Source: a virus
Lineage: Duplodnaviria; Heunggongvirae; Uroviricota; Caudoviricetes
Direction: 5' to 3' (one strand)
Virus record (IMG/VR): IMGVR_UViG_2585427763_000009
Length of the DNA stretch: 23,766 nucleotides
Shown here: positions 1 through 21,462 of the stretch, in pieces
Position numbering within the stretch: the stretch's first letter is position 1
Layout of the letters: the number at the start of each line of letters is the position of its first letter
Position numbers and translations under genes: made by a program
Notes under the pieces: generated by a model
Seen by the model: the letters and a program-made list of their open reading frames with translations, nothing else
Database searches by the model: none
Told to the model about the DNA's origin: nothing

Positions 1-1011
1 TTATAACGTCACTCCGCCTTTTAGTGGATTCAGAGCGACGGCATTTTGCAGATAGTCAGGCGCAAGGTGCGCATAGGCCATCGTCTGCTGAATGCTCGCA
101 TGTCCCAGAATCTGTTGCAGTGCGATTATATTGCCCCCATTCATCATGAAATGGCTTGCGAATGTATGCCGCAGGATGTGGGTTGCCTGATTGGGGGGTA
201 TATCAGGTTTCACTCTGCGTAAAATCCCGCAAAATTTCTCATAATCAACTTTGAATAATTTGGCGCTGGCCTCCTCTTTAACTTTTTTCTCCAGTTCCTC
301 AGAAATCGGCACGGTTCGCTTTTTACCGTTTTTGGTTTTCAGGAAGGTAACCCTGCAATTTGTAATCTGTGCTGGTTTTAGCGTGGCAACTTCCGTCCAT
401 CTTCCTCCAGTGCTCAGACATAAAAGCGCGACAAGTAAGTCATCACCAGCCAAAACATTTAACAGTTTTTCGATTTCTGCTTTTTCCAGGAACGTCATTT
501 CAGGGTTGGCTTCCGCCAGTGGCGGCAGTCCGTGAATTGGGTGTTGCCCGGAAAATTCATCCAATTGAATTAATTTTGTGAACATGCCGGATAATCGGTA
601 CATGTCACGGTTTATCGTTGCGGCACTGATACCATCACGTAGTCGCATGGAACGATAATCCATCAAAGCCCTTTTGCTCATCCTGCTCACTGGTATATCA
701 CCTATGCCGCTGATGGTTTTGAGTAGATGATTAAACTCTTTTGTTCCATGCTCGTGGTTTTGCCCGTGATATTTCCACCAGATGTCCAGCAACTCACTCA
801 AAGTCCGGCGGTCTGCTCGCTGGCCTCCCCATTCTTTCTGACTGGCATTGGCGATTGTGTATCGCTCAAATGCTAGTGCTTCAGCTTTTCTTTCGAATTT
901 CCTGCGGATGCGTTTTCCGTCGCGGCCGCGAGGTCTAATGTCCACTTCATAGCGACCATCATCGAGCTTCTTAATTGCCATAAGAAAGCCCTCCGGCGCT
1001 GTATTCACCAT
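1..1011 (-). CDS. int: Tyrosine-recombinase integrase of a P2-like prophage (336 aa); complete, stop codon at window position 1-3
   Basis: Full-length reverse-strand ORF; C-terminal region has the tyrosine-recombinase pattern (HTFASHFMMNGGNIIALQQILGHASIQQTMAYAHL); sits next to repressor C and cox as in P2. No search run. Confidence 0.88.
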   Translation of the reverse strand: MVNTAPEGFLMAIKKLDDGRYEVDIRPRGRDGKRIRRKFERKAEALAFERYTIANASQKEWGGQRADRRTLSELLDIWWKYHGQNHEHGTKEFNHLLKTISGIGDIPVSRMSKRALMDYRSMRLRDGISAATINRDMYRLSGMFTKLIQLDEFSGQHPIHGLPPLAEANPEMTFLEKAEIEKLLNVLAGDDLLVALLCLSTGGRWTEVATLKPAQITNCRVTFLKTKNGKKRTVPISEELEKKVKEEASAKLFKVDYEKFCGILRRVKPDIPPNQATHILRHTFASHFMMNGGNIIALQQILGHASIQQTMAYAHLAPDYLQNAVALNPLKGGVTL

Positions 1012-3237: not shown

Positions 3238-3509
3238 GTATTCGTATTGAAATTGGCGAACGTTATGTCGTTACCAGTGACAGCTTTCAGTTTATTCTCC
3301 ACGAGAAAAAGAGAGCGGAAAGCGGTAAAAACGCCGGTCAGGAATGGCTGGCGGTGGTTGGTTATTACCCGAAATTAAGCCAGCTCGTTTCCGGCCTGAT
3401 GCATCACGATATTCTGACCGGAAGCGCAAAGTCTTTTGCTGATTTAAACGGGCAGGTTGAGCAACTCAGCAAGCGTTGTTCAGAGGCTTTTGGCTCATAT
3501 GGCCGTTAA
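3234..3509 (+). CDS. Hypothetical protein, P2 orf83 slot (91 aa); 3' end overlaps A
   Basis: ORF coupled to the previous one (ATGA at 3234); its end overlaps the start of A as in P2. Confidence 0.5.
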   Translation: MSIRIEIGERYVVTSDSFQFILHEKKRAESGKNAGQEWLAVVGYYPKLSQLVSGLMHHDILTGSAKSFADLNGQVEQLSKRCSEAFGSYGR

Positions 3510-5778
3510 AGCCTCCGGGCGTTTTGTCCCTCCGTCAGCATTTGCCGCAGGCACCGGTAAGACGTTTACCGGTGCTTATGCATGGAACGCGCCACGCGAG
3601 GCCGTCGGGCGCGAAAGACCCCTTACACGTGACGAGATGCGTCAGGTGCAAGGTGTTTTATCCACGATTAACCGCCTGCCTTACTTTTTGCGTTCGCTGT
3701 TTACTTCACGCTATGACTACATCCGGCGCAATAAAAGCCCGGTGCACGGGTTTTATTTCCTCACATCCACTTTTCAGCGTCGTTTATGGCCGCGCATTGA
3801 GCGCGTGAATCAGCGCCATGAAATGAACACCGACGCGTCGTTACTGTTTCTGGCAGAGCGTGACCACTATGCGCGCCTGCCGGGAATGAATGACAAGGAG
3901 CTGAAAAAATTTGCCGCCCGTATCTCATCGCAGCTTTTCATGATGTATGAGGAACTCTGCGATGCCTGGGTGGATGCCCATGGCGAAAAAGAATCGCTGT
4001 TTACGGATGAGGCGCAGGCTCACCTGTATGGTCATGTTGCTGGCGCTGCACGTGCTTTCAATATTTCCCCGCTCTACTGGAAAAAATACCGTAAAGGACA
4101 GATGACCACGAGGCAGGCATATTCTGCCATTGCCCGCCTGTTTAACGATGAGTGGTGGACTCATCAGCTTAAAGGCCAGCGTATGCGCTGGCATGAGGCG
4201 TTACTGATTGCTGTCGGGGAGGTCAATAAAGACCGTTCTCCTTATGCCAGTAAACATGCCATTCGTGATGTGCGTGCACGCCGCCAGGCAAATCTGGAAT
4301 TTCTTAAATCGTGTGACCTTGAAAACAGGGAAACCGGCGAGCGCATCGACCTTATCAGTAAGGTGATGGGCAGTATTTCTAATCCTGAAATTCGCCGGAT
4401 GGAGCTGATGAACACCATTGCCGGTATTGAGCGTTACGCCGCAGCAGAGGGTGATGTGGGGATGTTTATCACGCTGACCGCGCCGTCAAAGTATCACCCG
4501 ACACGTCAGGTCGGAAAAGGCGAAAGTAAAACCGTCCAGCTAAATCACGGCTGGAACGATGAGGCATTTAATCCAAAGGATGCGCAGCGTTATCTCTGCC
4601 ATATCTGGAGCCTGATGCGCACGGCATTCAAGGATAATGATTTACAGGTCTACGGTTTGCGTGTCGTCGAGCCACACCACGACGGAACGCCGCACTGGCA
4701 TATGATGCTTTTTTGTAATCCACGCCAGCGTAACCAGATTATTGAAATCATGCGTCGCTATGCGCTCAAAGAGGATGGCGACGAAAGAGGAGCCGCGCGA
4801 AACCGTTTTCAGGCAAAACACCTTAACCGGGGCGGTGCTGCGGGATATATCGCGAAATACATCTCAAAAAACATCGACGGCTATGCACTGGATGGTCAGC
4901 TCGATAATGATACCGGTAGGCCGCTGAAAGACACAGCTGCGGCTGTTACCGCATGGGCGTCAACGTGGCGCATTCCGCAATTTAAAACGGTTGGTCTGCC
5001 GACAATGGGGGCTTACCGTGAACTACGCAAATTGCCTCGCGGCGTCAGCATTGCTGATGAGTTTGACGAGCGCGTCGAGGCTGCACGCGCCGCTGCAGAC
5101 AGTGGTGATTTTGCGTTGTATATCAGCGCGCAGGGCGGGGCAAATGTCCCGCGCGATTGTCAGACTGTCAGGGTCGCCCGTAGCCCGTCGGATGACGTTA
5201 ACGAGTACGAGGAAGAAGTCGAGAGAGTGGTCGGCATTTACGCGCCGCATCTCGGCGCGCGTCATATTCATATCACCAGAACGACGGACTGGCGCATTGT
5301 TCCGAAAGTGCCGGTCGTTGAGCCTTTGACTTTAAAAAGCGGCATCGCCGCGCCTCGGAGTCCTGTCAATAACTGTGGAAAGCTCACCGGTGGTGATACT
5401 TCGTTACCGGCTCCCACACCTTCTGAGCACGCCGCAGCAGTGCTTAATCTGGTTGATGACGGTGTTATTGAATGGAATGACCAGGAGGTCGTGAGGGCGC
5501 TCAGGGGCGCATTAAAACGAGGTCTGAGAAGACCAAACCGTCAGCAAAGAAACGGAAGCCCGTTAAAACAGCATGAAATGGCACCATCGGCCAGACTGAC
5601 CCGGTCAGAACGAATGCAAATTACCCGTATCCGCGTTGACCTTGCTCAGAACGGTATCAGGCCGCAGCGATGGGAGCTTGAGGCGCTGGCGCGTGGAGCA
5701 ATTGTAAATTACGACGGGAAAAAATTCACGTATCCAGTCGCTGATGAGTGGCGGGGATTCTCAGCAGTAATGGAGTGA
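3499..5778 (+). CDS. A: Rolling-circle replication initiator endonuclease gpA (759 aa from ATG 3499)
   Basis: Long ORF; from the internal ATG at 3499 (MAVKASGRF...) it matches the remembered P2 gpA N-terminus and length (~761 aa); contains HUH-type motif (PHWHMMLF) and the AGYIAKYISK tyrosine motif. Confidence 0.88.
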   Translation: MAVKASGRFVPPSAFAAGTGKTFTGAYAWNAPREAVGRERPLTRDEMRQVQGVLSTINRLPYFLRSLFTSRYDYIRRNKSPVHGFYFLTSTFQRRLWPRIERVNQRHEMNTDASLLFLAERDHYARLPGMNDKELKKFAARISSQLFMMYEELCDAWVDAHGEKESLFTDEAQAHLYGHVAGAARAFNISPLYWKKYRKGQMTTRQAYSAIARLFNDEWWTHQLKGQRMRWHEALLIAVGEVNKDRSPYASKHAIRDVRARRQANLEFLKSCDLENRETGERIDLISKVMGSISNPEIRRMELMNTIAGIERYAAAEGDVGMFITLTAPSKYHPTRQVGKGESKTVQLNHGWNDEAFNPKDAQRYLCHIWSLMRTAFKDNDLQVYGLRVVEPHHDGTPHWHMMLFCNPRQRNQIIEIMRRYALKEDGDERGAARNRFQAKHLNRGGAAGYIAKYISKNIDGYALDGQLDNDTGRPLKDTAAAVTAWASTWRIPQFKTVGLPTMGAYRELRKLPRGVSIADEFDERVEAARAAADSGDFALYISAQGGANVPRDCQTVRVARSPSDDVNEYEEEVERVVGIYAPHLGARHIHITRTTDWRIVPKVPVVEPLTLKSGIAAPRSPVNNCGKLTGGDTSLPAPTPSEHAAAVLNLVDDGVIEWNDQEVVRALRGALKRGLRRPNRQQRNGSPLKQHEMAPSARLTRSERMQITRIRVDLAQNGIRPQRWELEALARGAIVNYDGKKFTYPVADEWRGFSAVME

Positions 5779-6107
5779 ACGTCGCCAGTTGCGAAAATTA
5801 TTTACAGGGGGCAGCGTTAAGCATCTAAAGATCTTGTTCTATGATTAGAATGTTTCCTCGTTGCACTCTCGTATAGTTATTTAATGGGAAGATGTACTCT
5901 ATATGTTGTGTTTTGGTGATAAATGAAGCCAAAGGAAGGAGATTTTGCTTGATTGATGGGCGCTCTTTGCTATACACCTTGTATTGAGAAGGAGAAGTAA
6001 TCAAGGATTAAGCTGGCTTTTGTCAAAAATCTGAAAAGCTTTTTTGACTGAATACGATAGCGAGTTGTACTATTTGCGCCCTCAAAAGTAACCGGCGGCT
6101 GGGTAAA

Positions 6108-6482
6108 ATGGGGAAGCAAGGCAAAGGCAAAGGCAACAAAAATCAGGTTAAGGTTACGTGGGCTCAGGCGTGGCGGGATGTAATGATAAGAGCCATGTCT
6201 AATGGTCAGTTGATACCTATTACCATCAGTATTATTTTAATGATTGCTGCATGGAGGTTACCAAAAACAGACTTGTCCAATTTAGCCTTCTCTATTGTTG
6301 ATGGCTTTAAGGAGCATTCCTTGGTTGGTTGGGCTATCTCGGTAATAGTGGGTTTGGCTTGGTCTGCACATGCGCGAATCATGAGGCGCTGTTTTAGTTC
6401 CGAGGCACAGAGAATCGGTAACGAGAAAACAAAGTATCAACAAAGACAGACCACTCAAGCCTTGGGTACAAGTGATAAATAG
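6108..6482 (+). CDS. Small membrane protein, two predicted transmembrane helices (124 aa; true start may be the ATG at 6183)
   Basis: AT-rich ORF; hydrophobic segments LIPITISIILMIAAWRL and LVGWAISVIVGLAWSAHA; first gene after A in the cargo slot; a GGCGGGA Shine-Dalgarno-like run precedes the 6183 ATG. Confidence 0.5.
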   Translation: MGKQGKGKGNKNQVKVTWAQAWRDVMIRAMSNGQLIPITISIILMIAAWRLPKTDLSNLAFSIVDGFKEHSLVGWAISVIVGLAWSAHARIMRRCFSSEAQRIGNEKTKYQQRQTTQALGTSDK

Positions 6483-6502
6483 TTGTTTATTTAGGAGTTA
6501 TT

Positions 6503-7060
6503 ATGCTGACAGTGCTGTTTTATGTGCTGTTGGGTTTAGGCGCAGCACACTTCATTTACGAGCGAATCATTTTGCCGTCCATCCGACTTCATTATAGAAA
6601 CCAATTGTTTGCGCTTCGTGATGTCGCTAGGAGGAAAATCATTGATGGAGGTTCCGATACTTCCATGCAAGCGGCAACACTTGTGCATGACTCATTGAAT
6701 AACGCTATCAATAGATTGCATTTACTCACGTTGCCAAACAAATTTCGTGCTCAAAAGCGTATGGCAGAAAACCATGCAATAAGGCAGAAAATTCGGCGTG
6801 AGATAGATGTTTTCAAACGCTGTGATGATAGAGAAGTTGTTGATGTACTGTTTAAATCCGGTCGGATACTTGAAAATGTACTGTTATTCAATAGCTTAAT
6901 GTTATTGCTTTACATGTTTCCATTTGTCCTTGCTGTATGGTTCTGTGTTAGGGTCATAAAGACAGCAAGTAGTTTAGTACAGTGGGTCAAAGGAAGAGAT
7001 TTAGAGGAAGCTATAATGCTGCTTCCTGATACTCAGGTTGAAAAGGTTGTATACGCATAA
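6503..7060 (+). CDS. Membrane protein with N-terminal and C-terminal hydrophobic helices (185 aa)
   Basis: Starts 20 bp after the previous ORF behind an AGGAG Shine-Dalgarno; hydrophobic N-terminus (LTVLFYVLLGLGAAHFIY) and a C-proximal hydrophobic stretch (LLFNSLMLLLYMFPFVLAVWFCV); followed by a strong terminator. Confidence 0.55.
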   Translation: MLTVLFYVLLGLGAAHFIYERIILPSIRLHYRNQLFALRDVARRKIIDGGSDTSMQAATLVHDSLNNAINRLHLLTLPNKFRAQKRMAENHAIRQKIRREIDVFKRCDDREVVDVLFKSGRILENVLLFNSLMLLLYMFPFVLAVWFCVRVIKTASSLVQWVKGRDLEEAIMLLPDTQVEKVVYA

Positions 7061-7062
7061 AA

Positions 7063-7088
7063 ATCACCCCTTAGGGGGTGATTTTTTT
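7063..7088 (+). terminator. Rho-independent terminator after the two-membrane-protein operon
   Basis: Perfect hairpin ATCACCCC-TTAG-GGGGTGAT followed by TTTTTTT, immediately after the stop at 7060. Confidence 0.65.
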
Positions 7089-7299
7089 ACATGACTTTTG
7101 ATTAGCTGACATTGTAAATCCGCATGTATCAGATGCATTGTTTTGCATGTGGAAATGGGTGTTTTCACTGCCAGCTATCGCTACATGTAGCAAAAACACG
7201 GGCTTAATAAGAAATCATTCTGCCATAAGGCATAACTTCCCCGCGTGCTCAGGTATTGACGTCATAGATATGGATCTTTTTTAATCAAGGTATGGTATT

Positions 7300-8247
7300 A
7301 TGAAGATATTTATTAGTTGGTCAGGTCAGGACAGCCTGGAGATAGCAAAAGTATTACGGGATTGGATACCGAATGTTATTCAAGTAGCTGAGCCGTACGT
7401 ATCAGCGGAAGATATTGATAAAGGCACTCGCTGGGCGACTGATATATCAAAGGAACTTGATGACTCTTCTTATGGGATTATTTGCCTTACAAAAAATAAT
7501 ATTAATGCACCGTGGATAAATTTTGAGGCGGGTGCTTTAGGTAAAAAGGTTGATAAGAGCCGGGTTAGTCCTTTCTTGTTTAAAATTAAACCATCTGAGA
7601 TAACAGGCCCAATATTACAATTCCAGTATACTCGTTCGGATGATAAGAACGATATTTTGAAGTTGATGTTGTCAATAAATAATCAAGCAGGATTTTTGAC
7701 TGAAGAACGCTTAACTAAAGCTTTCGAGCAATGGTGGCCAAGTTTAGAGCGTGAGTTAGATAACATTCAAGATATTAACCCTGTAGATAAAGATTCCACT
7801 AAAAAAACAAAAGGTGATTCGACTTCTGAGATACAAAATCTTTCCAAAATTGTTGAAAGTTTGCTGGATATTAGCCGAACAAATCACCAATTATTGCGTG
7901 ATCCAGCATCATTATTGCCAGAAGAATATGTTAGCAAAATAATAAACAGGGAAGGGCGTAAAGAAACTGTTTTAAAAATTGTAGCTTCTGATTTATTATC
8001 CATGCATCATTCACTAATTCGTGTAAAAAGAAGATTTATTCGTCGTGGTATTGATGAAACATCTAGGAGCGAGTTAATTGAATCATTAAATAAAATGATA
8101 ATGGATTGTTCTAGAGTAATCGCTCACTTAGATAATTATTGTGGGGCTTCATCAAACAATATGTTCAATAGTGCGCTTAGATTGCGGACCAGAAATTTAA
8201 TTGACATGATGGATGAGGAGGATGCAGAACGGGATGAAATGGAATAA
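7300..8247 (+). CDS. TIR-domain protein (N-terminal TIR-like fold ~aa 1-150, C-terminal helical domain of unknown function; 315 aa)
   Basis: N-terminus KIFISWSGQDS (bacterial TIR beta-A strand pattern) and SYGIICLTKNNINAPWINFEAGAL (TIR S-x-W-x-x-x-E pattern, candidate catalytic Glu76 at nt 7525-7527); AT-rich; motif-level recognition only, no search. Confidence 0.6.
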   Translation: MKIFISWSGQDSLEIAKVLRDWIPNVIQVAEPYVSAEDIDKGTRWATDISKELDDSSYGIICLTKNNINAPWINFEAGALGKKVDKSRVSPFLFKIKPSEITGPILQFQYTRSDDKNDILKLMLSINNQAGFLTEERLTKAFEQWWPSLERELDNIQDINPVDKDSTKKTKGDSTSEIQNLSKIVESLLDISRTNHQLLRDPASLLPEEYVSKIINREGRKETVLKIVASDLLSMHHSLIRVKRRFIRRGIDETSRSELIESLNKMIMDCSRVIAHLDNYCGASSNNMFNSALRLRTRNLIDMMDEEDAERDEME

Positions 8248-8791
8248 TCAATTTTGACTAATCATAAATAATTTTGCATATATAAACTTATAATGCCGCA
8301 GCCGCTATTTTTCAGCGGCTGTATATCGCTTATAATGGGTATGTTATTTTTATTTTGATAAAATCATTAAAATTGTCGATGTTATATGAATGCACATGTA
8401 TTATTAATGTTAGAAGATTATGCCTGCTTACGGCTATTGTGCTGAATTCAACTATGAACGCATCAGTATTAAAATCGTTCCATGAAATGTTCTTCGTCTA
8501 CAGCAGATGATGGGCAACGAAAAAATGACGCTGAGTGAGTTGGTCGGGGAGAATTGTTAGAGGTATTTATGGAGTGGTTTAATAATATCGGTCAATCCTG
8601 AGTTGCAGCATCACATAGACGATAGGGAATCTCTCCAGTCGTTCTGGAATGGCAGCGTTGAACAACAAGCACAGCGAGGCGTTAGATGCCCATCAGATTG
8701 ACACAGAGGGTTTATGAATCGCTGGGATTTACTTAGTTTGAAAAATAATATATTTATATGTTTTTGTATTGTGTTTGTTAAGGAGTTTGGA

Positions 8792-8998
8792 TTGAAAAGA
8801 AAACTGATTTGTGTTATGGCTTTTTGGGGGGCGTTGCTGGCTGGTTGTAATGAGAGTAATAAAAAAGAAGTTGAGGGTTGTATTGAAAGAGGTGTCCAAT
8901 ATTTTATAGAGATTGGTTCTTACCCTAAATTAAGTGATGGGCGTGATGCTGTAAAAGTTGCTACTGAACGTTGTAATAGAACAATAACGGCTTTCTGA
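8792..8998 (+). CDS. Small predicted lipoprotein (69 aa from TTG 8792; longer frame opens at ATG 8714)
   Basis: AAGGAG Shine-Dalgarno 6 nt upstream of TTG 8792; N-terminus KRKLICVMAFWGALLAGC is a classic lipoprotein signal with lipobox LAGC; mature part has 3 Cys. The 8714 start would give an atypically long leader. Confidence 0.5.
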   Translation: MKRKLICVMAFWGALLAGCNESNKKEVEGCIERGVQYFIEIGSYPKLSDGRDAVKVATERCNRTITAF

Positions 8999-9000
8999 TA

Positions 9001-9918
9001 ATGGATTATACGAGCTATATAATAGGACAGCTTCAGGTTGAGGATATTATTGATGCAATTAAAGGCGTTAATAATACTAATGTCATAAAAGATTATGTGC
9101 TGCCTGTAGTATTACCAATTATATCTTCTGTGCTGAGTTACTTTATTGCAACTAGGTTGTTTTATCGGCAGGAGGACCTTAAAGCACAAAGAAGAAAGGT
9201 AAGCGTTGTAAATAAATGTATTTATGACTACTTTTCTGCAATGACAACGTTGTTGCAAATTAAAGGGAATTATTATGGTGGGGTAAGTATAAGTGAAAAT
9301 CCTATCGAGAGGGCTTTAGCTTTTCCTGTTGTGGTTTTTTCTGGTGCTCCTCTATCATCAGATTTAAGTGAGTTGGCCTGTATATTGAGTCAAAAGGGAG
9401 TAGGGAATAATAGAGAGCCAGCAAAGACTACTAACTGGGGGGATGCTTTTGCTGTTAGTGATATAGCAAGAAGGTTTAACAGCCTATTGGCTGCATTAAA
9501 TGTTAGGAATGATTTTGATGACACCTATAGAGGAATGATTATTGAATCAACAGGTTCACCTTTGCCTACGATGCGTTTTAAAAATGATGATATTGTTAAT
9601 GCTATAGGTAGTAATAAGGCAGCTTATTACATTGATATTACTGAGCAAATAATGATTATGATAGATGTTTTGTTGCTTGATATTAATCTGTTGCTCAAAG
9701 AGTTGCCATTGTATGCTGAATCGCTGTTTGACAAAAGAGTAATGCAAGAAGATTCAGGGATTCTTAAATTCAATGATTTGCACGAACGTTTTCCTCTACT
9801 TATGAAACCTGTAACGCCACCTTCGATTAAACTCATGTCTGATTATTTGGGGTACAGTGAAGATGAGATCTTACGACGCTATCCATACCCGTTCTTTAAT
9901 ATGCATGATTGTGAATGA
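9001..9918 (+). CDS. Hypothetical membrane-anchored protein (305 aa), translationally coupled to the upstream lipoprotein gene
   Basis: ATG 2 nt after the lipoprotein stop (TGATAATG); one hydrophobic helix (~aa 32-54, VLPVVLPIISSVLSYFIATRLF); AT-rich; no motif I recognise. Confidence 0.55.
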   Translation: MDYTSYIIGQLQVEDIIDAIKGVNNTNVIKDYVLPVVLPIISSVLSYFIATRLFYRQEDLKAQRRKVSVVNKCIYDYFSAMTTLLQIKGNYYGGVSISENPIERALAFPVVVFSGAPLSSDLSELACILSQKGVGNNREPAKTTNWGDAFAVSDIARRFNSLLAALNVRNDFDDTYRGMIIESTGSPLPTMRFKNDDIVNAIGSNKAAYYIDITEQIMIMIDVLLLDINLLLKELPLYAESLFDKRVMQEDSGILKFNDLHERFPLLMKPVTPPSIKLMSDYLGYSEDEILRRYPYPFFNMHDCE

Positions 9919-10022
9919 ATGTGCATATGTCAGAAGCCGTTTTTATTGTCAGTTATCGTCAGTGCTGGCGCGCTCTTGGAGTGTTCATGCAACTGCATTA
10001 AAACCGCCCCACGAAGCGGGCG

Positions 10023-10041
10023 GGCGAGGCGGGGAAAGCAC
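10023..10041. other. Candidate cos cohesive-end site (GGCGAGGCGGGGAAAGCAC)
   Basis: 19-mer matching my memory of the P2 cohesive end, in a GC-rich segment just beyond the 3' end of Q where P2 cos lies; the exact P2 sequence is recalled, not verified. Confidence 0.5.
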
Positions 10042-10171
10042 TGCGCGCTGGCGGTGGTGATGATTGTCTGAGCGCGTCGTGATGGCGTTTAGATTGTGCG
10101 CCGGGGCGTTGGTGTGTCTGCGGGGTGTTTTGTACAGTGGCGAGCGTGTGAGGGCGTGATGACGGGGGTGT

Positions 10172-10198: not shown

Positions 10199-11233
10199 TC
10201 AGCCGTTGTCAGTGTCCAGTGAGTAGTTTTTAAAGCGGATGACCTCCTGACCGAGCCAGCCGTTTATTTCCCGAATCCTGTCCTGTAACGGGATAAGTTC
10301 ATTGCGGACAAAGACCTTTGCCACTTTCTCAATATCGCCCAGCGACCCGACGTTTTCCGGCTTGCCACCCATCAACTGAAAGGGGATGCGGTGCGCGTCC
10401 AGCAGGTCAGCGGCGCTGGCTTTTTTGATATTAAAAAAATCGTCCTTCGTGGCCACTTCACTGAGCGGGATAATTTTAATGCCGTCGGCTTTTCCCTGTG
10501 GGGCATAGAGAAACAGGTTTTTAAAGTTATTGCGGCCTTTCGACTTCACCATGTTTTCGCGGAGCATTTCGATATCGTTGCGATCCTGCACGGCATCAGT
10601 GACGTACATGATGTATCCGGCATGTGCGCCGTTTTCGTAATACTTGCGGCGGAACAGCGTGGCCGACTCATTCAGCCAGGCAGAGTTAAGGGCGCTGAGA
10701 TATTCCGGCAGACCGTACAGCTCCTGATTAATATCCGGCTCCAGCAGGTGAAACACGGAGCCGGGCGCGAAAGGTGTCGGCTCGTTGAAGGACGGCACCC
10801 ACCAGTAAACATCCTCCTCCACGCCACGGCGGGTATATTTTGCCGGTGAGGTTTCCAGTCTGATGACCTTACCGGTGGTGCTGTAACGCTTTTCCAGAAA
10901 CGCATTACCGAATACCAGAAAATCCAGCACAAAGCGGCTGAAATCCTGCTGAGAAAGCCACGGGTGTGGGATAAACGTTGAGGCCAGAATGTTACGTTTG
11001 ACGTAAATCGGTGAGCTGTGATGCACGGCAGCACGCAGGCTTTTTGCCAGACCGGTAAAGCTGACTGGTGGCTCATACCATCTGCCGTTACTGATGCACT
11101 CGACGTAATCCAGAATGTCACGGCGGTCGAGTACCGGCACCGGCTCACCAAAGGTGAATGCCTCCATTTTCGGGGCGCTGGCGGTCATTTTTTTTGCCGC
11201 AGGTTGCGGTGTTTTCCCTTTTTTCTTGCTCAT
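10199..11233 (-). CDS. Q: Capsid portal protein gpQ (344 aa)
   Basis: 344-aa reverse-strand ORF; N-terminus MSKKKGKTPQPAAKKMTASAPKMEAFTFGEP matches remembered P2 gpQ; correct size and position next to cos. Confidence 0.88.
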   Translation of the reverse strand: MSKKKGKTPQPAAKKMTASAPKMEAFTFGEPVPVLDRRDILDYVECISNGRWYEPPVSFTGLAKSLRAAVHHSSPIYVKRNILASTFIPHPWLSQQDFSRFVLDFLVFGNAFLEKRYSTTGKVIRLETSPAKYTRRGVEEDVYWWVPSFNEPTPFAPGSVFHLLEPDINQELYGLPEYLSALNSAWLNESATLFRRKYYENGAHAGYIMYVTDAVQDRNDIEMLRENMVKSKGRNNFKNLFLYAPQGKADGIKIIPLSEVATKDDFFNIKKASAADLLDAHRIPFQLMGGKPENVGSLGDIEKVAKVFVRNELIPLQDRIREINGWLGQEVIRFKNYSLDTDNG

Positions 11234-12042
11234 CAGTAAAACTCCAGAATGGTGGATGTCAGCGGGGTGCTGATACCGGCGGTGAGTGGCTCATTTAACA
11301 GGGCGTGCATGGTCGCCCAGGCGAGGTCGGCGTGGCTGGCTTCCTCGCTACGGCTGGCCTCATAGGTGGCGCTGCGTCCGCTGCTGGTCATGGTCTTGCG
11401 GATAGCCATGAACGAGCTGGTGATGTCGGTGGCGCTGCGTCCGCTGCTGGTCATGGTCTTGCGGATAGCCATGAACGAGCTGGTGATGTCGGTGGCGCTG
11501 CGTCCGCTGCTGGTCATGGTCTTGCGGATAGCCATGAACGAGCTGGTGATGTCGGTGGCGCTGCGTCCGCTGCTGGTCATGGTCTTGCGGATAGCCATGA
11601 ACGAGCTGGTGATGTCGGTGGCGCTGCGTCCGCTGCTGGTCATGGTCTTGCGGATAGCCATGAACGAGCTGGTGATGTCGGTGGCGCTGCGTCCGCTGCT
11701 GGTCATGGTCTTGCGGATAGCCATGAACGAGCTGGTGATGTCGGTGGCGCTGACGTCATATTCCAGACAGCCACGGCGGATGACGTCTTTTGCCTTGAGC
11801 ACCATTGCGGTTTTCATTTCCGGCGTGTAGCGGATATCGCGTGCGGCGGGATAGAACGAGCGCACGAGCTGGAACACGCCGACACCGAGGCCGGTGGCAT
11901 CAATTCCGATGTATTCGACGTTGTATTTTTCGGTGAGTTTGCGGATGGATTCCGCCTGAGTGGCAAAGTCCATGCCTTTCCACTGGTGACGCTCAAGTAT
12001 TCTGAATTTACCTCCGGCCACCACCGGCGGTGCCAGCACCAC
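11233..12042 (-). pseudogene. P: 3' remnant of terminase ATPase/nuclease subunit gene P: 5'-truncated, carrying an expanded in-frame tandem repeat
   Basis: Reverse-strand frame ends 1 nt into the Q start (P2 P-Q arrangement) and contains a terminase nuclease-like motif (YIGIDATGLGVGV), but only ~270 codons remain versus ~590 in P2 gpP; the upstream partner on the + strand is lysozyme K, not O/N/M. Confidence 0.7.
11371..11748. repeat. Perfect tandem repeat, 6 copies of a 63-bp unit (in frame; encodes SATDITSSFMAIRKTMTSSGR x6 on the reverse strand)
   Basis: Unit GCTGCGTCCGCTGCTGGTCATGGTCTTGCGGATAGCCATGAACGAGCTGGTGATGTCGGTGGC starts at 11371, 11434, 11497, 11560, 11623 and 11686 with no mismatches; phase is ambiguous by about 6 nt because the flanks share GGTGGC / GCTG. 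Confidence 0.9.
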
Positions 12043-12516: not shown

Positions 12517-12942
12517 ATGAAGAAATTATCCCTTTCACTGATGCTGAATGTGCCGCTGGCGCTGATGCTGGCACTGTCCCTGATTTACCCGCAGAGCGTG
12601 GCCGTCAGTTTTGTCGCCGCCTGGGCGATTCTGGCGACGGTTATCTGTGTGGTTGCCGGTGGTGTCGGCGTGTATGCCACTGAGTATGTGCTGGAACGCT
12701 ACGGGCGGGAGCTGCCGCCGGAATCGCTGGCCGTGAAGATTGTCACGTCGCTGTTTTTGCAGCCGGTGCCGTGGCGCAGACGGGCAGTAGCTCTGGTGGT
12801 GATGGTGGCGACGTTTATCTCGCTGGTCGCTGCCGGGTGGATTTTTACCGCGCTGATTTATCTTGTGGCGTCGCTGTTTTTCCGGCTGATACGTAAAGCC
12901 TGCCGTCAGCGTTTTGAGGGGCGGGAACCATGTCAAAGCTGA
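12517..12942 (+). CDS. lysA: Lysis regulatory membrane protein LysA (141 aa)
   Basis: 141-aa multi-pass hydrophobic protein directly after K, GGAG Shine-Dalgarno; same size and position as P2 lysA. Confidence 0.78.
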   Translation: MKKLSLSLMLNVPLALMLALSLIYPQSVAVSFVAAWAILATVICVVAGGVGVYATEYVLERYGRELPPESLAVKIVTSLFLQPVPWRRRAVALVVMVATFISLVAAGWIFTALIYLVASLFFRLIRKACRQRFEGREPCQS

Positions 12943-13355
12943 TGATTGTGCTGGTTGTGCTGTTATCGCTGGCGGTGGCGGGGCTGTTTCTGGTGAAGCA
13001 TGAAAACGCCAGCCTGCGCGCCTCGCTGGACAGGGCGAACAACGTCGCCAGTGAACAGCAGACGACCATCACCATGCTGCAAAATCAGCTTCATGTTGCC
13101 ATCACCAGGGCAGACAAAAACGAGCTGGCGCAGGTGGCACTGCGTCAGGAACTGGAGAACGCCGCGAAGCGTGAAGCACAGCGCGAGAAAACCATCACGA
13201 GGTTACTTAATGAAAACGAAGATTTTCGCCGCTGGTATGGCGCTGACCTGCCTGATGCTGTGCGCCGGTTGCACCAGCGCCCCGCCTGCACCGACGCCAG
13301 TGATTGTCGCCAACGCCTGCCCGAAAGTGAGCCTTTGCCCGATGCCGGGCAGTGA
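12930..13355 (+). CDS. lysB: Inner-membrane spanin LysB (Rz-like, 141 aa)
   Basis: N-terminal membrane anchor then coiled-coil-like sequence; same size and position as P2 lysB; the lysC frame is embedded in it. Confidence 0.78.
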   Translation: MSKLMIVLVVLLSLAVAGLFLVKHENASLRASLDRANNVASEQQTTITMLQNQLHVAITRADKNELAQVALRQELENAAKREAQREKTITRLLNENEDFRRWYGADLPDAVRRLHQRPACTDASDCRQRLPESEPLPDAGQ

Positions 13356-13500
13356 CCCGGAGACGAACGGCGATTTAAGTGCCGATATCCGGCAGCTTGA
13401 GAACGCGCTGGCACGTTGTGCCAGCCAGGTAAAAATGATTAAACACTGTCAGGACGAAAACGATGCTCAAACCCGACAGCCTGCGCAGGGCGCTGACTGA
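13210..13500 (+). CDS. lysC: Outer-membrane lipoprotein spanin LysC (Rz1-like, 96 aa), embedded in the +1 frame of lysB
   Basis: ATG at 13210; lipoprotein signal MKTKIFAAGMALTCLMLCAGC (lipobox LCAGC); proline-rich mature region; embedded spanin arrangement as in P2. Confidence 0.7.
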   Translation: MKTKIFAAGMALTCLMLCAGCTSAPPAPTPVIVANACPKVSLCPMPGSDPETNGDLSADIRQLENALARCASQVKMIKHCQDENDAQTRQPAQGAD

Positions 13501-14446: not shown

Positions 14447-15232
14447 TTATGAGTGATTTTTATTTGATGCTTTGTATTCTAAAACCTTCTTATTGGCGTA
14501 AAAGAATTTTGTATATGACAGGAATATAACCAGACCTGAAGTGAAATAGACGAGGGATAGTATTAATAATGCTTTTTTGCGACTGTTATTATCTTTAATC
14601 TCCAGGCTTAACCATTCGGAGTCCTCCTCGTTTAGCTGTAAGAGCTTATTGCAGGCGATTTCAGGAAGTGTGTCTTTTATAAATACGTTTTGCAGTCTCT
14701 TGCAATCGGCAAGGCTATAAGTTTTATTAAATTCAACTGCTTTATTTTTGAAGGATAAAAGAACTTTGTCACTATAAACATAGTACATCATGTTTTTATA
14801 TGGTATGCCTATGGCATCCCTTACTATAACGGATTGTTCGTTGTGTATGTAACATGCGAGGAGAATGTAAAAAATACTGGCCAGAATTACAATTATTGTT
14901 TTAATTATGTGTGGTGGTTTTGTTATGTCACCCCAGATGCGAGTAAGGAAAAAATACGATGTTTTTAGTTTTCCATCAATCAGTCCCTGCTGTATCATTC
15001 TCACATTTTCAATGCCTGATACATTGATTCCGTTAATTATTTTAAATAGTTGAATGTCGCGCCACTCGCGGTCAAGTCTTTTTAATTTTTTGTCTGAATA
15101 TCCAAAATTGAAATAATGTGCAATAAGCCTCATAAGGTTACTTTTACCAAAGCTAAAAAATGCTAATACTGCAAAGCTACAAAGGAAAAAAACGATTAGC
15201 CCCCACACATTAGTCACATTATAGCTGACCAT
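14447..15232 (-). CDS. Hypothetical membrane protein (261 aa, about 3 transmembrane helices), moron in the S/V slot
   Basis: Strongly AT-rich reverse-strand ORF between S and V where P2 carries the non-essential orf30; hydrophobic helices at the N-terminus, middle (IIKTIIVILASIFYILLACYI) and C-terminus (ALLILSLVYFTSGLVIFL). Confidence 0.6.
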   Translation of the reverse strand: MVSYNVTNVWGLIVFFLCSFAVLAFFSFGKSNLMRLIAHYFNFGYSDKKLKRLDREWRDIQLFKIINGINVSGIENVRMIQQGLIDGKLKTSYFFLTRIWGDITKPPHIIKTIIVILASIFYILLACYIHNEQSVIVRDAIGIPYKNMMYYVYSDKVLLSFKNKAVEFNKTYSLADCKRLQNVFIKDTLPEIACNKLLQLNEEDSEWLSLEIKDNNSRKKALLILSLVYFTSGLVIFLSYTKFFYANKKVLEYKASNKNHS

Positions 15233-15315
15233 TACGCTCTCCTTGAATGTTGTCTGGTAGTTCTACAAATGAATCCAGATAGCATAACTTTTATATATTG
15301 TGCAATCTCACATGC

Positions 15316-15951
15316 ATGAACACTCTCGCAAATATTCAGGAACTCGCGCGCGCACTGCGCAACATGATTCGCACCGGCATTATCGTCGAAACCGACCTTA
15401 ACGCCGGTCGCTGCCGCGTGCAGACCGGCGGCATGTGCACCGACTGGCTTCAGTGGCTGACCCATCGCGCCGGTCGTTCGCGCACATGGTGGGCACCTTC
15501 CGTGGGGGAACAGGTGCTGATTCTGTCCGTGGGCGGTGAACTCGACACGGCGTTTGTTCTGCCGGGGATTTATTCCGGCGATAATCCCGCGCCGTCTGCG
15601 TCGGCGGATGCCCTGCATATCCGTTTCCCTGACGGGGCGGTGATTGAGTATGAACCCGAAACCAGTGCGCTCACGGTAAGCGGAATTAAAACGGCCAGCG
15701 TGACGGCTTCCGGTTCTGTTACTGCCACTGTGCCGGTGGTCATGGTGAAAGCGTCAACCCGCATCACCCTGGACACACCGGAGGTGGTCTGCACCAACAG
15801 GCTGATTACCGGCACGCTGGAAGTGCAGAAGGGCGGGACGATGCGCGGCAACATTGAACACACCGGCGGTGAACTCTCATCAAACGGTAAGGTACTGCAT
15901 ACCCATAAACACCCCGGCGACAGCGGCGGCACAACCGGGAGTCCTCTATGA
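15316..15951 (+). CDS. V: Baseplate spike/assembly protein gpV (211 aa from ATG 15316)
   Basis: Matches P2 gpV size and order; start set at MNTLANIQ; stop overlaps the W start. Confidence 0.85.
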   Translation: MNTLANIQELARALRNMIRTGIIVETDLNAGRCRVQTGGMCTDWLQWLTHRAGRSRTWWAPSVGEQVLILSVGGELDTAFVLPGIYSGDNPAPSASADALHIRFPDGAVIEYEPETSALTVSGIKTASVTASGSVTATVPVVMVKASTRITLDTPEVVCTNRLITGTLEVQKGGTMRGNIEHTGGELSSNGKVLHTHKHPGDSGGTTGSPL

Positions 15952-16295
15952 CAGCGCGTTATCTCGGAATGAATCGCAGTGATGGCCTGACGGTCACTGA
16001 CCTTGAGCATATCAGCCAGAGTATCGGCGATATCCTGCGCACACCGGTCGGCTCACGGGTGATGCGCCGTGATTACGGCTCGTTGCTGGCGTCAATGATT
16101 GACCAGCCGCAGACCCCGGCGCTTGAGTTGCAGATTAAGGTCGCCTGTTACATGGCGGTGCTGAAATGGGAACCCCGCGTCACCCTGTCATCCGTCACCA
16201 CGGCGCGCAGTTTTGACGGGCGAATGACGGTCACGTTAACCGGTCAGCACAACGACACCGGTCAGCCACTTTCGTTAACCATCCCTGTGAGTTGA
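15948..16295 (+). CDS. W: Baseplate wedge protein gpW (115 aa)
   Basis: 115 aa, same size and order as P2 gpW. Confidence 0.85.
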   Translation: MTARYLGMNRSDGLTVTDLEHISQSIGDILRTPVGSRVMRRDYGSLLASMIDQPQTPALELQIKVACYMAVLKWEPRVTLSSVTTARSFDGRMTVTLTGQHNDTGQPLSLTIPVS

Positions 16296-16299
16296 AACC

Positions 16300-17208
16300 A
16301 TGCCGATTATCGACCTGAACCAGCTACCCGCACCGGATGTGGTCGAGGAGCTGGACTTTGAAACCATTCTTGCCGAACGCAAGGCGACACTGATTTCCCT
16401 TTACCCGGAAGACCAGCAGGAGGTGGTCGCCCGTACCCTGACGCTGGAATCGGAGCCTCTCGTCAAACTGCTGGAAGAAAATGCTTATCGTGAGCTTATC
16501 TGGCGTCAGCGTGTGAATGAGGCCGCACGGGCGGTGATGCTGGCCTGTGCCGCCGGTAATGACCTTGATGTGATTGGTGCCAATTACAACACCACACGCC
16601 TGATTATCATCCCGGCAGATGATTCGACCATCCCGCCGACACCGGCAGTGATGGAATCTGACACCGATTATCGTCTGCGTATTCAGCAGGCGTTTGAAGG
16701 TTTAAGCGTTGCCGGGTCGGTGGGAGCCTATCAGTATCATGGTCGCAGTGCCGACGGGCGTGTCGCGGATATCTCTGTCACCAGTCCGTCTCCGGCCTGT
16801 GTCACTATCTCCGTGCTGTCCCGAGAAAATAACGGTGTCGCATCCGAAGACCTGCTGGCTGTGGTGCGTAACGCTCTTAATGGCGAGGACGTCAGGCCGG
16901 TGGCTGACCGTGTGACCGTGCAGTCTGCCGCCATTGTTGAATACCAGATAAACGCCACGCTGTATCTTTACCCTGGTCCAGAAAGCGAACCCATCCGCGC
17001 CGCCGCCGTGAAAAAACTGGAAGCGTACATCACGGCACAGCACCGGCTGGGGCGCGACATCCGTCTGTCTGCCATTTATGCCGCTTTGCATGTGGAAGGC
17101 GTGCAGCGTGTCGAACTGACTGCACCGCTGGCTGACATCGTGCTCAACAGTACGCAGGCGTCTTTCTGCACCGAATACAGCGTCGTGACCGGAGGCTCGG
17201 ATGAGTGA
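16300..17208 (+). CDS. J: Baseplate assembly protein gpJ (302 aa)
   Basis: 302 aa, same size and order as P2 gpJ. Confidence 0.85.
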   Translation: MPIIDLNQLPAPDVVEELDFETILAERKATLISLYPEDQQEVVARTLTLESEPLVKLLEENAYRELIWRQRVNEAARAVMLACAAGNDLDVIGANYNTTRLIIIPADDSTIPPTPAVMESDTDYRLRIQQAFEGLSVAGSVGAYQYHGRSADGRVADISVTSPSPACVTISVLSRENNGVASEDLLAVVRNALNGEDVRPVADRVTVQSAAIVEYQINATLYLYPGPESEPIRAAAVKKLEAYITAQHRLGRDIRLSAIYAALHVEGVQRVELTAPLADIVLNSTQASFCTEYSVVTGGSDE

Positions 17209-17731
17209 TTCGCGACTGCTGCCGACCGGCTCATCACCGCTTGAGGTCGCCGCCGCAAAAGCCTGTGCGGAAATTGAAAAAACACCGGTCAGTATTCGTG
17301 AGCTGTGGAACCCGGACTCCTGTCCGGCAAATCTGCTGCCGTGGCTGGCGTGGGCGTTTTCGGTCGACAGGTGGGATGAAAAGTGGCCGGAAGCGACAAA
17401 ACGCGCCGTTATCCGCGATGCCTATTTCATCCACTGTCATAAAGGCACTATCGGCGCAATCCGACGCGTGGTGGAGCCGCTCGGCTATCTCATCAACGTG
17501 ACGGAGTGGTGGGAAAACAGTGACCCGCCCGGCACCTTCCGGCTTGATATTGGTGTACTGGAAAGCGGTATCACAGAGGCAATGTATCAGGAAATGGAAC
17601 GGCTGATTGCCGATGCCAAACCTGCAAGCCGCCACCTTATTGGCCTGAACATTACCCGGGACATTCCCGGCTATCTGTTCGCCGGTGGTGTGGCTTACGA
17701 CGGCGATGTAATTACGGTTTACCCCGGATAA
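17201..17731 (+). CDS. I: Baseplate/tail protein gpI (176 aa)
   Basis: 176 aa, same size and order as P2 gpI; start overlaps the J stop. Confidence 0.85.
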   Translation: MSDSRLLPTGSSPLEVAAAKACAEIEKTPVSIRELWNPDSCPANLLPWLAWAFSVDRWDEKWPEATKRAVIRDAYFIHCHKGTIGAIRRVVEPLGYLINVTEWWENSDPPGTFRLDIGVLESGITEAMYQEMERLIADAKPASRHLIGLNITRDIPGYLFAGGVAYDGDVITVYPG

Positions 17732-17741
17732 GTGAGGAATA

Positions 17742-19787: not shown

Positions 19788-19790
19788 TTT

Positions 19791-20318
19791 ATGCAGCATT
19801 TAAAAAATATTACTGCGGGTAATCCAAAAACTGTTGCCCAATATCAACTGACAAAAAATTTTGATGTTATCTGGTTATGGTCCGAAGAGGGAAAAAACTG
19901 GTATGAGGAAGTAAGTAATTTTCAGGAAGACACGATAAAGATTGTTTACGACGAGAATAATATAATTGTCGGCATCACCAGAGATGCTTCAACGCTTAAC
20001 CCTGAAGGTTTCAGCGTTGTCGAGGTTCCTGATATTACCTCCAACCGACGTGCTGATGACTCAGGTAAATGGATGTTTAAGGATGGTGCCGTGATTAAGC
20101 GGATTTATACGGCAGATGAACAGGAGCAACAGGCAGAATCACAAAAAGCAGCTTTACTTTCCGAAGCGGAAAGCGTTATTCAGCCACTGGAACGCGCTGT
20201 CAGGCTGAATATGGCGACGGATGAGGAATGCGCACGACTGGAGTCATGGGAACGCTACAGCGTTCTGATCAGCCGTGTGGATCCTGCAAATCCTGAATGG
20301 CCGGAAATGCCGCAATAA
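19791..20318 (+). CDS. G: Tail fiber assembly chaperone gpG (175 aa)
   Basis: 175 aa directly after H; same size and order as P2 gpG. Confidence 0.82.
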
Positions 20319-20539
20319 GTTGTATAAGCTCTGGTGTGAGATTACATATCTATGGCACAGAGTAAAGCCTAATCTGACAGGCCGCTCTGTGTCTGGAGTA
20401 GATTTTAGTAAAGCATTATTTTATTAGTGCAAATTCTAATCAATACATTTTATGTATATGATATCCTACGGACTTTAATGACTTGGTTTAGGCTAACCAG
20501 ATAACACTGAAGGAATATTTTTGATAATTAAGGTGCGGT

Positions 20540-21133
20540 ATGTTTACTAAGCGACGATTAAAAAATATTAACTGGGAGGCAAGTTCAGTGATTCTTGCTA
20601 TGGTTCTCTTTGTTGGAAATATATTTTATACAAATCATCGTGATGATATAAGCATGGAGGCTGAGAGGGACAGTATCAGAACAATGTTTGCATATGAAAT
20701 CGCTAATAACCATCGCGCTCTCACTTTTCTTGATAAAACGAGACATATTGGCTTTGACGAAAATTCGGAGCATTTTGTTGGCGAGCCTTTTGCCATTAAT
20801 GTCAAATCATTAGGGGGACCTCGCTTACAGATTGCATTAAACCAGACTGATAAAGTGTTTAAATCCTACTTCGGCGAATTAAGTAAGCTTGATAAAGAGG
20901 ATGTTACTCTTCTTATGGACTATTACCATGAGCAAAGCATCCTGCTGGAGCGTGTAAAATCTACGTTACAGAAGATGAAAAGTGGTAATGATATTAAAGT
21001 TGATATTGATGGTTGCTTATTAGAAGAACACTTCATGAATGAGCTTAATCTTTCTAATATTTTGCTTAAACGCTATAGCTATTTATTATCACAACACGCT
21101 AAGGAACATAAAACAAAAGATTTACATAATTGA
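20540..21133 (+). CDS. Hypothetical membrane-anchored protein (197 aa) in the Z/fun slot between G and FI
   Basis: AT-rich ORF after a 220-bp AT-rich spacer; single N-terminal hydrophobic helix (SSVILAMVLFVGNIFY) then a soluble domain; no motif I recognise. Confidence 0.55.
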   Translation: MFTKRRLKNINWEASSVILAMVLFVGNIFYTNHRDDISMEAERDSIRTMFAYEIANNHRALTFLDKTRHIGFDENSEHFVGEPFAINVKSLGGPRLQIALNQTDKVFKSYFGELSKLDKEDVTLLMDYYHEQSILLERVKSTLQKMKSGNDIKVDIDGCLLEEHFMNELNLSNILLKRYSYLLSQHAKEHKTKDLHN

Positions 21134-21340
21134 TAATCTGCTAATGGTTATTCATGGGGTAACTATGTTTTATATGTAATCCAGCCCAGATGAATTATTG
21201 ATTCTGGATAATAACCGCAGAGCGGCATATACCCTGACAGGCAAATGTCCGCTTCTTGCTCAAAGCAGACTGTCAGATTTGATAACTTTTGGGCTATGTA
21301 AACTGTCAGTCGGAAAATGAGTGTGTACAAATCAGGACAG

Positions 21341-21365
21341 GCGGGCGAATTGCCCGCATTTTCTT
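21341..21365 (+). terminator. Rho-independent terminator upstream of the FI remnant
   Basis: Hairpin GCGGGC-GAATT-GCCCGC followed by ATTTTCTTT. Confidence 0.5.
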
Positions 21366-21462
21366 TATCTGTTGTTTCATCCACTGACCAGCCAGGTCAA
21401 ATAGCGTCTCATGTACTACCCAACGGAAAATAGTTGCACCCATTAACCACGGAGTTAAACGG

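Follow-up and report, generated by a model that had tools for sequence, protein, structure and literature searches.

The AT-rich gpA-gpQ interval of a defective P2-like Escherichia coli prophage carries the cargo of P2_AC1, probably as three exchangeable cassettes

The gpA-gpQ hotspot of P2-like prophages was defined by Rousset et al. (2022; Cell Host Microbe, PMC9122126), who also isolated the Escherichia phage P2_AC1 (hereafter AC1). The tested cargo of this hotspot is mostly defensive, and non-defence cargo such as partition systems and cytolethal distending toxin (CDT) is found there as well. An AC1 lysogen protects E. coli C from the phages lambda and LF82_P8, and the plasmid pFD240, which is described as '2TM + 1TM + TIR' in Table S2A and relies on native promoters, protects E. 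coli C against lambda, LF82_P8 and P2 (PMC9122126). By analogy with the Thoeris system, the authors proposed that the TIR protein signals to the membrane proteins. Apart from this study, literature searches on the mechanism of 2TM-1TM-TIR and on the protein accessions returned catalogue mentions only. The present analysis concerns the stretch between gene A and cos in the IMG/VR virus record IMGVR_UViG_2585427763_000009, whose full 23,766 nucleotides are referred to as the window. The window holds a P2-like E. coli prophage that begins with the integrase (1-1011, minus strand) and continues with the early genes, gene A, an AT-rich island, cos, gene Q, and the lysis and tail genes. The five genes of the island are designated g1 to g5 in their order from A to cos.

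The interval is most probably the cos-proximal gpA-gpQ (tin/old) accessory hotspot of this prophage, carrying the cargo of AC1, and it is best read as three stacked cassettes that are separately transcribed and exchangeable. Its left edge lies exactly at 5780/5781, two bases past the stop codon of A, and the homology shared with every other P2-like locus ends at 5780. Its right edge lies at about 9946-10022, the breakpoints on this side fall at about 9946-10048, and the linear record of AC1 stops at window position 10022, its cos end. The features of the interval and its two flanks are as follows.

3457..5778, plus strand: P2 gene A (replication endonuclease), the left conserved flank; an open reading frame (ORF) of 773 aa, labelled from the near-identical prophage L001
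5900..7148, plus strand: cassette 1, comprising the promoter region, g1, g2 and a terminator; delimited by DNA homology with the viral contigs L025 and L026
6044..6073, plus strand: predicted promoter-like TTGACT-18-TACTAT upstream of g1 (9/12 in a consensus scan), within the pFD240 insert and also within the segment common to L025, L026 and the window
6108..6482, plus strand: g1, a small membrane protein of 124 aa ('2TM'); PADLOC 2TM-TIR, PHROG 33772
6503..7060, plus strand: g2, a membrane protein of 185 aa ('1TM'); PADLOC 1TM-TIR, PHROG 24550
7061..7088, plus strand: intrinsic terminator directly 3' of g2, AAAUCACCCC-UUAG-GGGGUGAUUU followed by a U-run, with a 10-bp stem
7277..8322, plus strand: cassette 2, comprising g3 and a downstream hairpin; DNA homology with the viral contig L028 over 7277-8101
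7300..8247, plus strand: g3, a TIR-domain protein of 315 aa (TIR at about residues 1-150, then a helical C-terminal region); Pfam TIR_2, PADLOC TIR-TM
8495..8548, plus strand: 54 bp surviving from a 77-aa gene that in related prophages comes after the DUF3850 gene, 87% identical to positions 5450-5503 of L005-L007
8642..9946, plus strand: cassette 3, comprising g4 and g5; homology with L002 and L005-L007 starts exactly at 8642
8792..8998, plus strand: g4, a lipoprotein precursor of 68 aa (MKRKLICVMAFWGALLAGC/NES..., the slash marking the predicted cleavage), with a TTG start 7 nt after AAGGAG at 8780-8785
8821..8831, plus strand: homopolymer tract T5G6 in the part of g4 that encodes the signal peptide, from alignment with AC1 and L011
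9001..9918, plus strand: g5, a single-pass membrane protein of 305 aa with a short N-terminal helix, a transmembrane (TM) segment at about 33-54 (31-55 by hydropathy) and a helical-bundle C-terminus; PHROG 21267
10023..10041, no strand assigned: P2-type cos cohesive-end sequence of 19 nt, GGCGAGGCGGGGAAAGCAC, read directly; right limit of the slot
10199..11233, minus strand: portal gene Q, the right conserved flank; an ORF of 344 aa, 'phage portal protein' in L001

The 19-nt GGCGAGGCGGGGAAAGCAC is the cos sequence of P2. A first-pass annotation, made from the sequence without database searches, had described a drop in base composition between the end of A and the cos region, and the measured values agree with it. 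The island (5781-9950) has a GC content of 37.6%, compared with 50.7% for the rest of the window, and in windows of 500 bp the GC fraction is 0.54-0.57 in gene A, 0.32-0.43 over 5750-10000 and 0.51-0.57 beyond. The GC fraction at third codon positions is likewise lower in the five island genes (0.23-0.46) than in A (0.55) and the portal gene (0.64). The same annotation had listed five ORFs, and there are indeed five, all intact and on the plus strand (6108-6482, 6503-7060, 7300-8247, 8714-8998 and 9001-9918), but the fourth had been listed too long: it spans 94 aa as listed, and its real start at TTG 8792 gives 68 aa. As had also been claimed, every product is either membrane-associated or a TIR protein, with TM segments in g1, g2 and g5, a lipobox in g4 and a TIR_2 domain in g3. 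The absence of a recognisable tin or old gene was borne out too, since none of the five proteins has a PADLOC or Pfam match to Old or Tin. Rfam detected no RNA family in the window.

The interval has the properties of the hotspot, in that it lies between A and cos with the portal gene Q beyond, its content varies and its flanks are conserved. Of the 5426 complete E. coli genomes that were compared with a query of 4.8 kb spanning the island, 2161 matched it in the flanks (A and portal) and only 14 over the cargo, at 98.6-99.7% identity, which places the locus in the variable accessory slot of P2-like phages, as had been suggested, and shows that the five genes are not a backbone shared by most of these phages. 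In other P2-like phages and genomes, the same slot holds a CDT toxin, Fic, a retron-type reverse transcriptase, DUF3850 and other genes. In one of the 14 island genomes, E. coli GCEC19 (H5, NZ_CP137765.1), an insertion sequence of the IS21 family, ISEc12 (istA/istB), lies within the island.

The locus as such is already known, being near-identical to a published and experimentally tested one, and its defence activity is literature-based. AC1 (L003) is 99.6% identical over window positions 5500-10022 and is the only cargo-wide match in the phage collection. Moreover, Table S5A of PMC9122126 lists the five-gene arrangement with protein accessions that are those of the RefSeq records found here. 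The primers of pFD240 map to window positions 5843 and 8609-8633, so the insert corresponds to 5843-8633 and excludes g4-g5. Relative to the proteins encoded by pFD240, g2 is 100% identical, g3 is 99.7% identical (A283V only) and g1 has 124 rather than 126 aa. The PADLOC models 2TM-TIR, 1TM-TIR and TIR-TM, which were built from this system, match g1 (2.2e-58), g2 (2.7e-75) and g3 (2.3e-118), respectively, near full length and in the published order. By gene models and clone identity, g1-g3 can be assigned to 2TM-1TM-TIR (Rst_2TM_1TM_TIR). The PADLOC matches and the protective clone also support the earlier reading of the island as defence cargo.

What is new here is the composition of the island, which may consist of three cassettes, each found alone near cos elsewhere, so that the 'three-gene system' would not be obligate. 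In L025 and L026, two P2-like viral contigs whose gene A is about 76-78% identical to that of the window, g1-g2 are present at 85-88% amino acid identity, and there is no TIR gene between A and portal. The DNA homology of these contigs (77-78%) runs from window position 5899/5901 to 7088/7148 and resumes at 9946, on the cos side. Conversely, in the P2-like viral contig L028, the slot from A to cos is occupied by nothing but a full-length TIR homologue (75% amino acid identity). Neither g1 nor g2 was found within 4 kb of any of the 48 other viral TIR relatives (32-61% identical), and a Burkholderia TIR homologue beside an OLD-family nuclease and a Vibrio one among unknown genes are both without g1 and g2. 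The third cassette, g4-g5, occurs without g1-g3 in L002 (E. coli MS 16-3), L004, L014 and the Salmonella-type P2-like prophages L005-L007, and in L014 it is the sole hotspot cargo. The combination g1-g2-g3 is confined to the AC1 lineage, and in a 2024 survey of a set of bacterial genomes, 2TM-1TM-TIR was among just two catalogued systems that were not encountered. Overall, the comparative evidence does not reveal a conserved co-occurrence of g1, g2 and g3 as one unit.

The division into three transcription units, which had been read from the sequence at first, is structurally plausible. Only 20 nt separate g1 from g2 and only 2 nt separate g4 from g5. In contrast, a terminator and a gap of 239 nt lie between g2 and g3, and g4 starts after a spacer of 544 nt from g3. 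The fold of the g2 terminator has an energy of -21.9 kcal/mol per 80 nt (z = -3.14), and none of 200 shuffled sequences was as stable. The hairpin 3' of g3, at 8298-8322, has a 9-bp stem. Single promoter calls are weak, as the island contains 17 promoter-like sites compared with 13.7 +/- 3.5 in shuffled sequence.

An alternative is that g1-g3 form one obligate Thoeris-like relay, in which a messenger made by the TIR protein activates the membrane proteins and causes cell death, with g4-g5 as unrelated cargo. This is the hypothesis of the authors of the clone, and both PADLOC and DefenseFinder model the three genes as one system. Membrane effectors are also common in signalling defence systems. 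Two observations tell against independent cassettes and for such a relay: the three co-linear genes travel together in 14 of the 14 E. coli genomes as well as in AC1, and pFD240, for which TIR-to-membrane signalling was proposed, held all three together (PMC9122126). Nevertheless, the relay appears rather unlikely. It has to accommodate g1-g2 without TIR in L025 and L026 and TIR without g1-g2 in L028, all in the same slot; g1 and g2 are near none of the 48 other viral TIR relatives; a strong terminator and 239 nt intervene between g2 and g3; and g1 and g2 lack SLOG, Macro, SAVED and CARF domains. Additionally, no gene-deletion analysis of pFD240 was found in the text or supplements of PMC9122126. 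As every cassette is also found by itself in this slot in other P2-like phages, we lean modestly toward a self-sufficient TIR protein, with g1-g2 as an independent membrane-level module. This bears on both the definition of the system and the proposed signalling, as DefenseFinder and PADLOC treat 2TM-1TM-TIR as an obligate trio.

On the reading as independent cassettes, g1 and g2 would be two small inner-membrane proteins that constitute a separate membrane-level module and not an obligate downstream effector. Hydropathy places a TM segment of g1 at about 33-53, and a weaker stretch at about 70-88 was read by eye. In g2, an N-terminal TM segment (1-20) is followed by a long hydrophobic stretch (122-159). 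Pfam recognised no ligand-binding domain (SLOG, Macro, SAVED or CARF) in either protein, and a scan of a one-genome-per-species collection found no relatives of g2. The N-terminus of g1 contains a Gly-Lys repeat (6108-6150) of variable length: AC1 has one extra GGCAAA unit and a protein of 126 aa.

The product of g3 is probably an NAD+-cleaving enzyme, a reading that relies on sequence motifs and is marked by the invariant Glu76. Residues 3-113 match Pfam TIR_2 (4.7e-10; 40.5 bits, with a cutoff of 28), and the TIR family to which g3 belongs numbers more than 1500 proteins at E <= 1e-5. Hydropathy predicts no TM segment in g3. Among 28 homologues, the first 150 residues are extremely conserved and the C-terminal half is variable. 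The motif APW[IL]NFEAGAL, which includes E76 (W72-x3-E76), is invariant in all 28, down to 42% identity. From the position of the motif, we take E76 to be the equivalent of the catalytic Glu of TIR enzymes. As a point against this reading, the TIR domain of g3 matched no solved TIR structure, either as a single sequence or as a profile of the 28 homologues, and produced spurious helical matches only. Because no solved TIR structure could be aligned, the proposed catalytic role of E76 derives from motif position and invariance. The C-terminal 165 residues match nothing known, and this variable helical half is likely the infection sensor. Infection, sensed through the C-terminal region, would switch on g3, and the activated protein would consume NAD+ or make an NAD-derived signal, so that the infection would be aborted.

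Cassette 3 begins with g4. Its start was assigned to the TTG at 8792 because this start agrees with the homologues in L004 and L014, with a RefSeq coding sequence of 207 nt in MS 16-3 and with PHROG 32041, which covers residues 27-94 of the 94-aa ORF. The predicted product has the signature of a bacterial lipoprotein, in that its signal peptide combines a basic n-region with a hydrophobic core and an L-[AS]-G-C lipobox. The lipobox is LLAGC in the window and LLSGC (...FLLSGC) in the homologues of L004 and L014, which lie directly upstream of a g5 homologue. Two of the three g4 variants have Asp at position +2, which is an inner-membrane retention signal in E. coli. The pairing of the lipoprotein with g5 is kept across three variants, whose g5 proteins are 98%, 57% and 52% identical to that of the window. 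The variant of L004 (57%) is followed by a gene of 433 aa (L004 1808-3109) with a Pfam match to MauJ just above threshold (28.3 bits, cutoff 28) and a weak match to DzbB, which may be another defence candidate.

The history of the slot can be read in part from the Salmonella-type prophages, where the order is A, DUF3850 (orf91-like), a 77-aa ORF, g4, g5 and portal; the 77-aa ORF accompanies the others in L007. A 54-bp remnant of this gene persists at 8495-8548 of the window, which suggests that an ancestor already carrying g4-g5 exchanged its DUF3850 region for DNA that includes the TIR gene.

The g4 reading frame is interrupted in some relatives. AC1 and the IMG/VR contig L011 carry T5G5 in place of the T5G6 tract, with one G lost and a frameshift as the result, and L012 gives the same split alignment in tblastn. 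The gene is not annotated in the AC1 record. The g4 allele is intact in the window and in 13 of the 14 island genomes; in the remaining genome, M21816, it is 1 bp shorter. In MS 16-3 and the Salmonella-type loci, the tract is T7G4, with the same total length. The loss of one G may reflect no more than decay, or the tract may act as an on/off switch that is prone to slippage. Since g4-g5 lie outside pFD240 and g4 is frameshifted in AC1, the published assays were made without an intact lipoprotein.

Neither g4 nor g5, as single sequences or, for g5, as a 60-member profile, has an above-threshold match in Pfam, NCBIfam, PADLOC or the sequences of the Protein Data Bank. A word-indexed search with g5 returned two close clusters only. 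A profile search of 1.84 billion representatives, by comparison, returned 201 at E<=1e-3, of which 113 were at E<=1e-10, and a scan of the one-genome-per-species collection returned none. The relatives are about 280-300 aa long and have the same N-terminal helix and one TM segment. An AlphaFold2 model of g5 built on an alignment of 60 sequences is all-helical, with a predicted local distance difference test (pLDDT) score of 88 and a predicted template modelling score of 0.81, and its only structural neighbours are generic four-helix bundles. A first model, built on 3 sequences, had a pLDDT of 55 and was discarded. We infer that the N-terminal helix of g5 is periplasmic and the bundle cytoplasmic because some relatives carry an added signal peptide or TM segment, or an N-terminus with two TM segments, and the charge bias of g5 agrees. 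With this topology, the lipoprotein can meet g5 only at the periplasmic face.

The genomic surroundings of g5 relatives have the signature of an unannotated family resident in defence islands. Two relatives lie in type I restriction-modification (R-M) loci. PDC-S67, PDC-S58/ApeA, an AriA/OLD-like ATPase and SoFic are found directly upstream of g5 relatives, and PDC-M70A, PDC-S20, PD-Lambda-5_B, PDC-S42, a NotI R-M pair, integrases and transposases occur within 5 kb. One relative is located between gpR and gpS, another moron slot of P2-like phages, in the prophage L010. More distant relatives have no lipoprotein partner; the DUF4124 protein and the PDC-S67-like protein encoded upstream of such relatives are both not homologous to g4.

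Given its place in the slot and the neighbourhoods of its relatives, cassette 3 would be an envelope-spanning anti-phage or exclusion module, to which we assign slightly less than an even chance. The g4 lipoprotein would sense or modulate at the periplasmic face, and the cytoplasm or the membrane would be the site of action of the g5 bundle. Three points count against it: no convincing sigma-70 promoter is predicted within 8642-8791, three g5 relatives lie among housekeeping genes, and the neighbourhood survey was based on crude ORF calls with no matched control. A more specific version, which we offer tentatively, is that g4-g5 would represent an unrecognised anti-phage family, with g5 as the founding P2-borne member of an N-out family of about 200 clusters and the lipoprotein recruited as its envelope-reading partner; 2TM-1TM-TIR would then be two independent modules that are neighbours in one lineage.

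The competing reading, that g4-g5 are a lysogenic-conversion or envelope-fitness factor for the host, like lambda Bor or the CDT toxins of the slot, is somewhat less probable still. In its favour, the hotspot is known to carry partition systems and CDT (PMC9122126), and CDT was also seen here; g4 and g5 are envelope proteins that match nothing in the defence libraries; and some g5 relatives lie among housekeeping genes. Against it, several members of the g5 family are directly preceded by a known or candidate defence gene or are located in a type I R-M locus, their neighbourhoods contain integrases, transposases and further defence matches, and the cargo tested from this slot was mostly defensive. 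As g5 belongs to a sizeable unannotated family that recurs beside defence genes, the pair is an inexpensive and clearly delimited candidate for a new anti-phage function at the level of the envelope.

Two further readings of g4-g5 were dropped. Entry exclusion was abandoned on the grounds of topology, location and a lack of significant similarity. A spanin pair (Rz/Rz1-like) was rejected because the g5 bundle is inferred to be cytoplasmic, the genes lie in an accessory slot g5 relatives are found outside phages too, and homologues of lysB/lysC are already encoded elsewhere in the prophage (about 12930-13500).

The prophage in the window is defective and cannot make heads. Relative to the intact prophage L001, about 5.3 kb is gone (L001 positions 15254-20570), with the junction at about 12052; the lost DNA comprises the greater part of terminase P, the head genes O, N, M, L, X and Y, and the 5' end of the lysozyme gene. 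The remaining stub of terminase P contains 6.2 copies of a 63-bp unit (11365-11757; 99% matches), which is in frame (21 codons) and single-copy in related prophages. No complete E. coli genome in the collection matched the stretch comprising the repeat and the deletion junction at >=80% coverage. The strain YJR_complete (H98) may share the terminase-lysozyme junction. The first-pass annotation was therefore right that the prophage has decayed, but the decay is incidental to the island, since intact prophages and AC1, a viable phage, carry the same island. That the AT-rich interval is a decaying, non-functional leftover of a dead prophage is very improbable despite the 5.3-kb deletion, the tandem repeat in the terminase stub, the gene remnant at 8495-8548 and the IS21-family insertion in one genome, as the five ORFs are intact with 98.5-100% protein identity to L001, g1-g3 and g5 are intact in AC1 and g4 is intact here, and homologues at 52-86% identity keep their reading frames.

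Other accessory DNA was observed in the window and its relatives. A second AT-rich island (14447-15618, minus strand), with a GC fraction of about 0.35, separates the tail-completion genes from baseplate gene V, at the position of orf30 in P2. It contains ORFs of 261 and 128 aa on the minus strand with no Pfam or PADLOC match, and at >=80% coverage it is present in 460 of the 5426 E. coli genomes, which makes it far commoner than the cargo between A and cos. A third AT-rich stretch (20330-21420), with a GC fraction of about 0.36-0.40, follows the tail-fibre genes and contains an ORF of 197 aa (20540-21133) with no Pfam or PADLOC match; it was found in 201 genomes at >=80% coverage, and it may be the P2 Z/fun accessory position. 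The prophage L010, whose g5 relative lies between gpR and gpS, also has a YhfG/Fic pair between gpS and gpV (8687-9471), an arrangement that implies that several late-region gaps of P2-like phages act as accessory slots. In L002, an insert of 1.3 kb (3904-5205) with a gene of 333 aa, which has no Pfam or PADLOC match, lies between the equivalents of window positions 10048 and 10066. This is the portal side of cos, so cargo can insert to the right of cos as well.

When compared with described systems, the locus is closest to that of AC1, with which it shares the position between gpA and cos, the gene order, 99.6% DNA identity and the DefenseFinder type Rst_2TM_1TM_TIR. The two differ in that AC1 is viable and the prophage in the window is defective, and in that g4 is frameshifted in AC1 and intact in the window; the published 'system' also ends before g4-g5. 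Thoeris (ThsB TIR and ThsA) provides the analogy for the signalling model and similarly places a TIR gene beside candidate effectors. However, neither Pfam nor PADLOC finds a SIR2/SLOG or Macro domain in g1, g2, g4 or g5, which sets the locus apart from Thoeris, and here the TIR gene and the membrane pair are each found without the other. The single-gene TIR defence proteins, such as the TIR-NLR of the P4 hotspot, resemble g3 in their N-terminal TIR domain, invariant Glu and variable C-terminus, and g3 homologues likewise stand alone, as sole cargo in L028 and beside an OLD-family nuclease in L021. In contrast to these proteins, g3 has no STAND/NLR NTPase or repeat domain.

As a small prophage lipoprotein with an inner-membrane partner, g4 is reminiscent of T5 Llp, phi80 Cor, TP-J34 Ltp and the entry-exclusion lipoproteins of plasmids. 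It has no significant similarity to any of them and differs in always being paired with the mostly cytoplasmic g5; the sole computed link is a sub-threshold match to EexN (E = 0.083) that covers the signal peptide only. With respect to P2 itself (NC_001895), no Old, Tin or DUF3850 match exists among the five proteins, and the 54-bp remnant is the only survivor of such cargo. Despite this difference in content, the island and the old/tin/orf91 genes of P2 occupy the same slot between A and cos, and both are swappable accessory cargo that excludes other phages.

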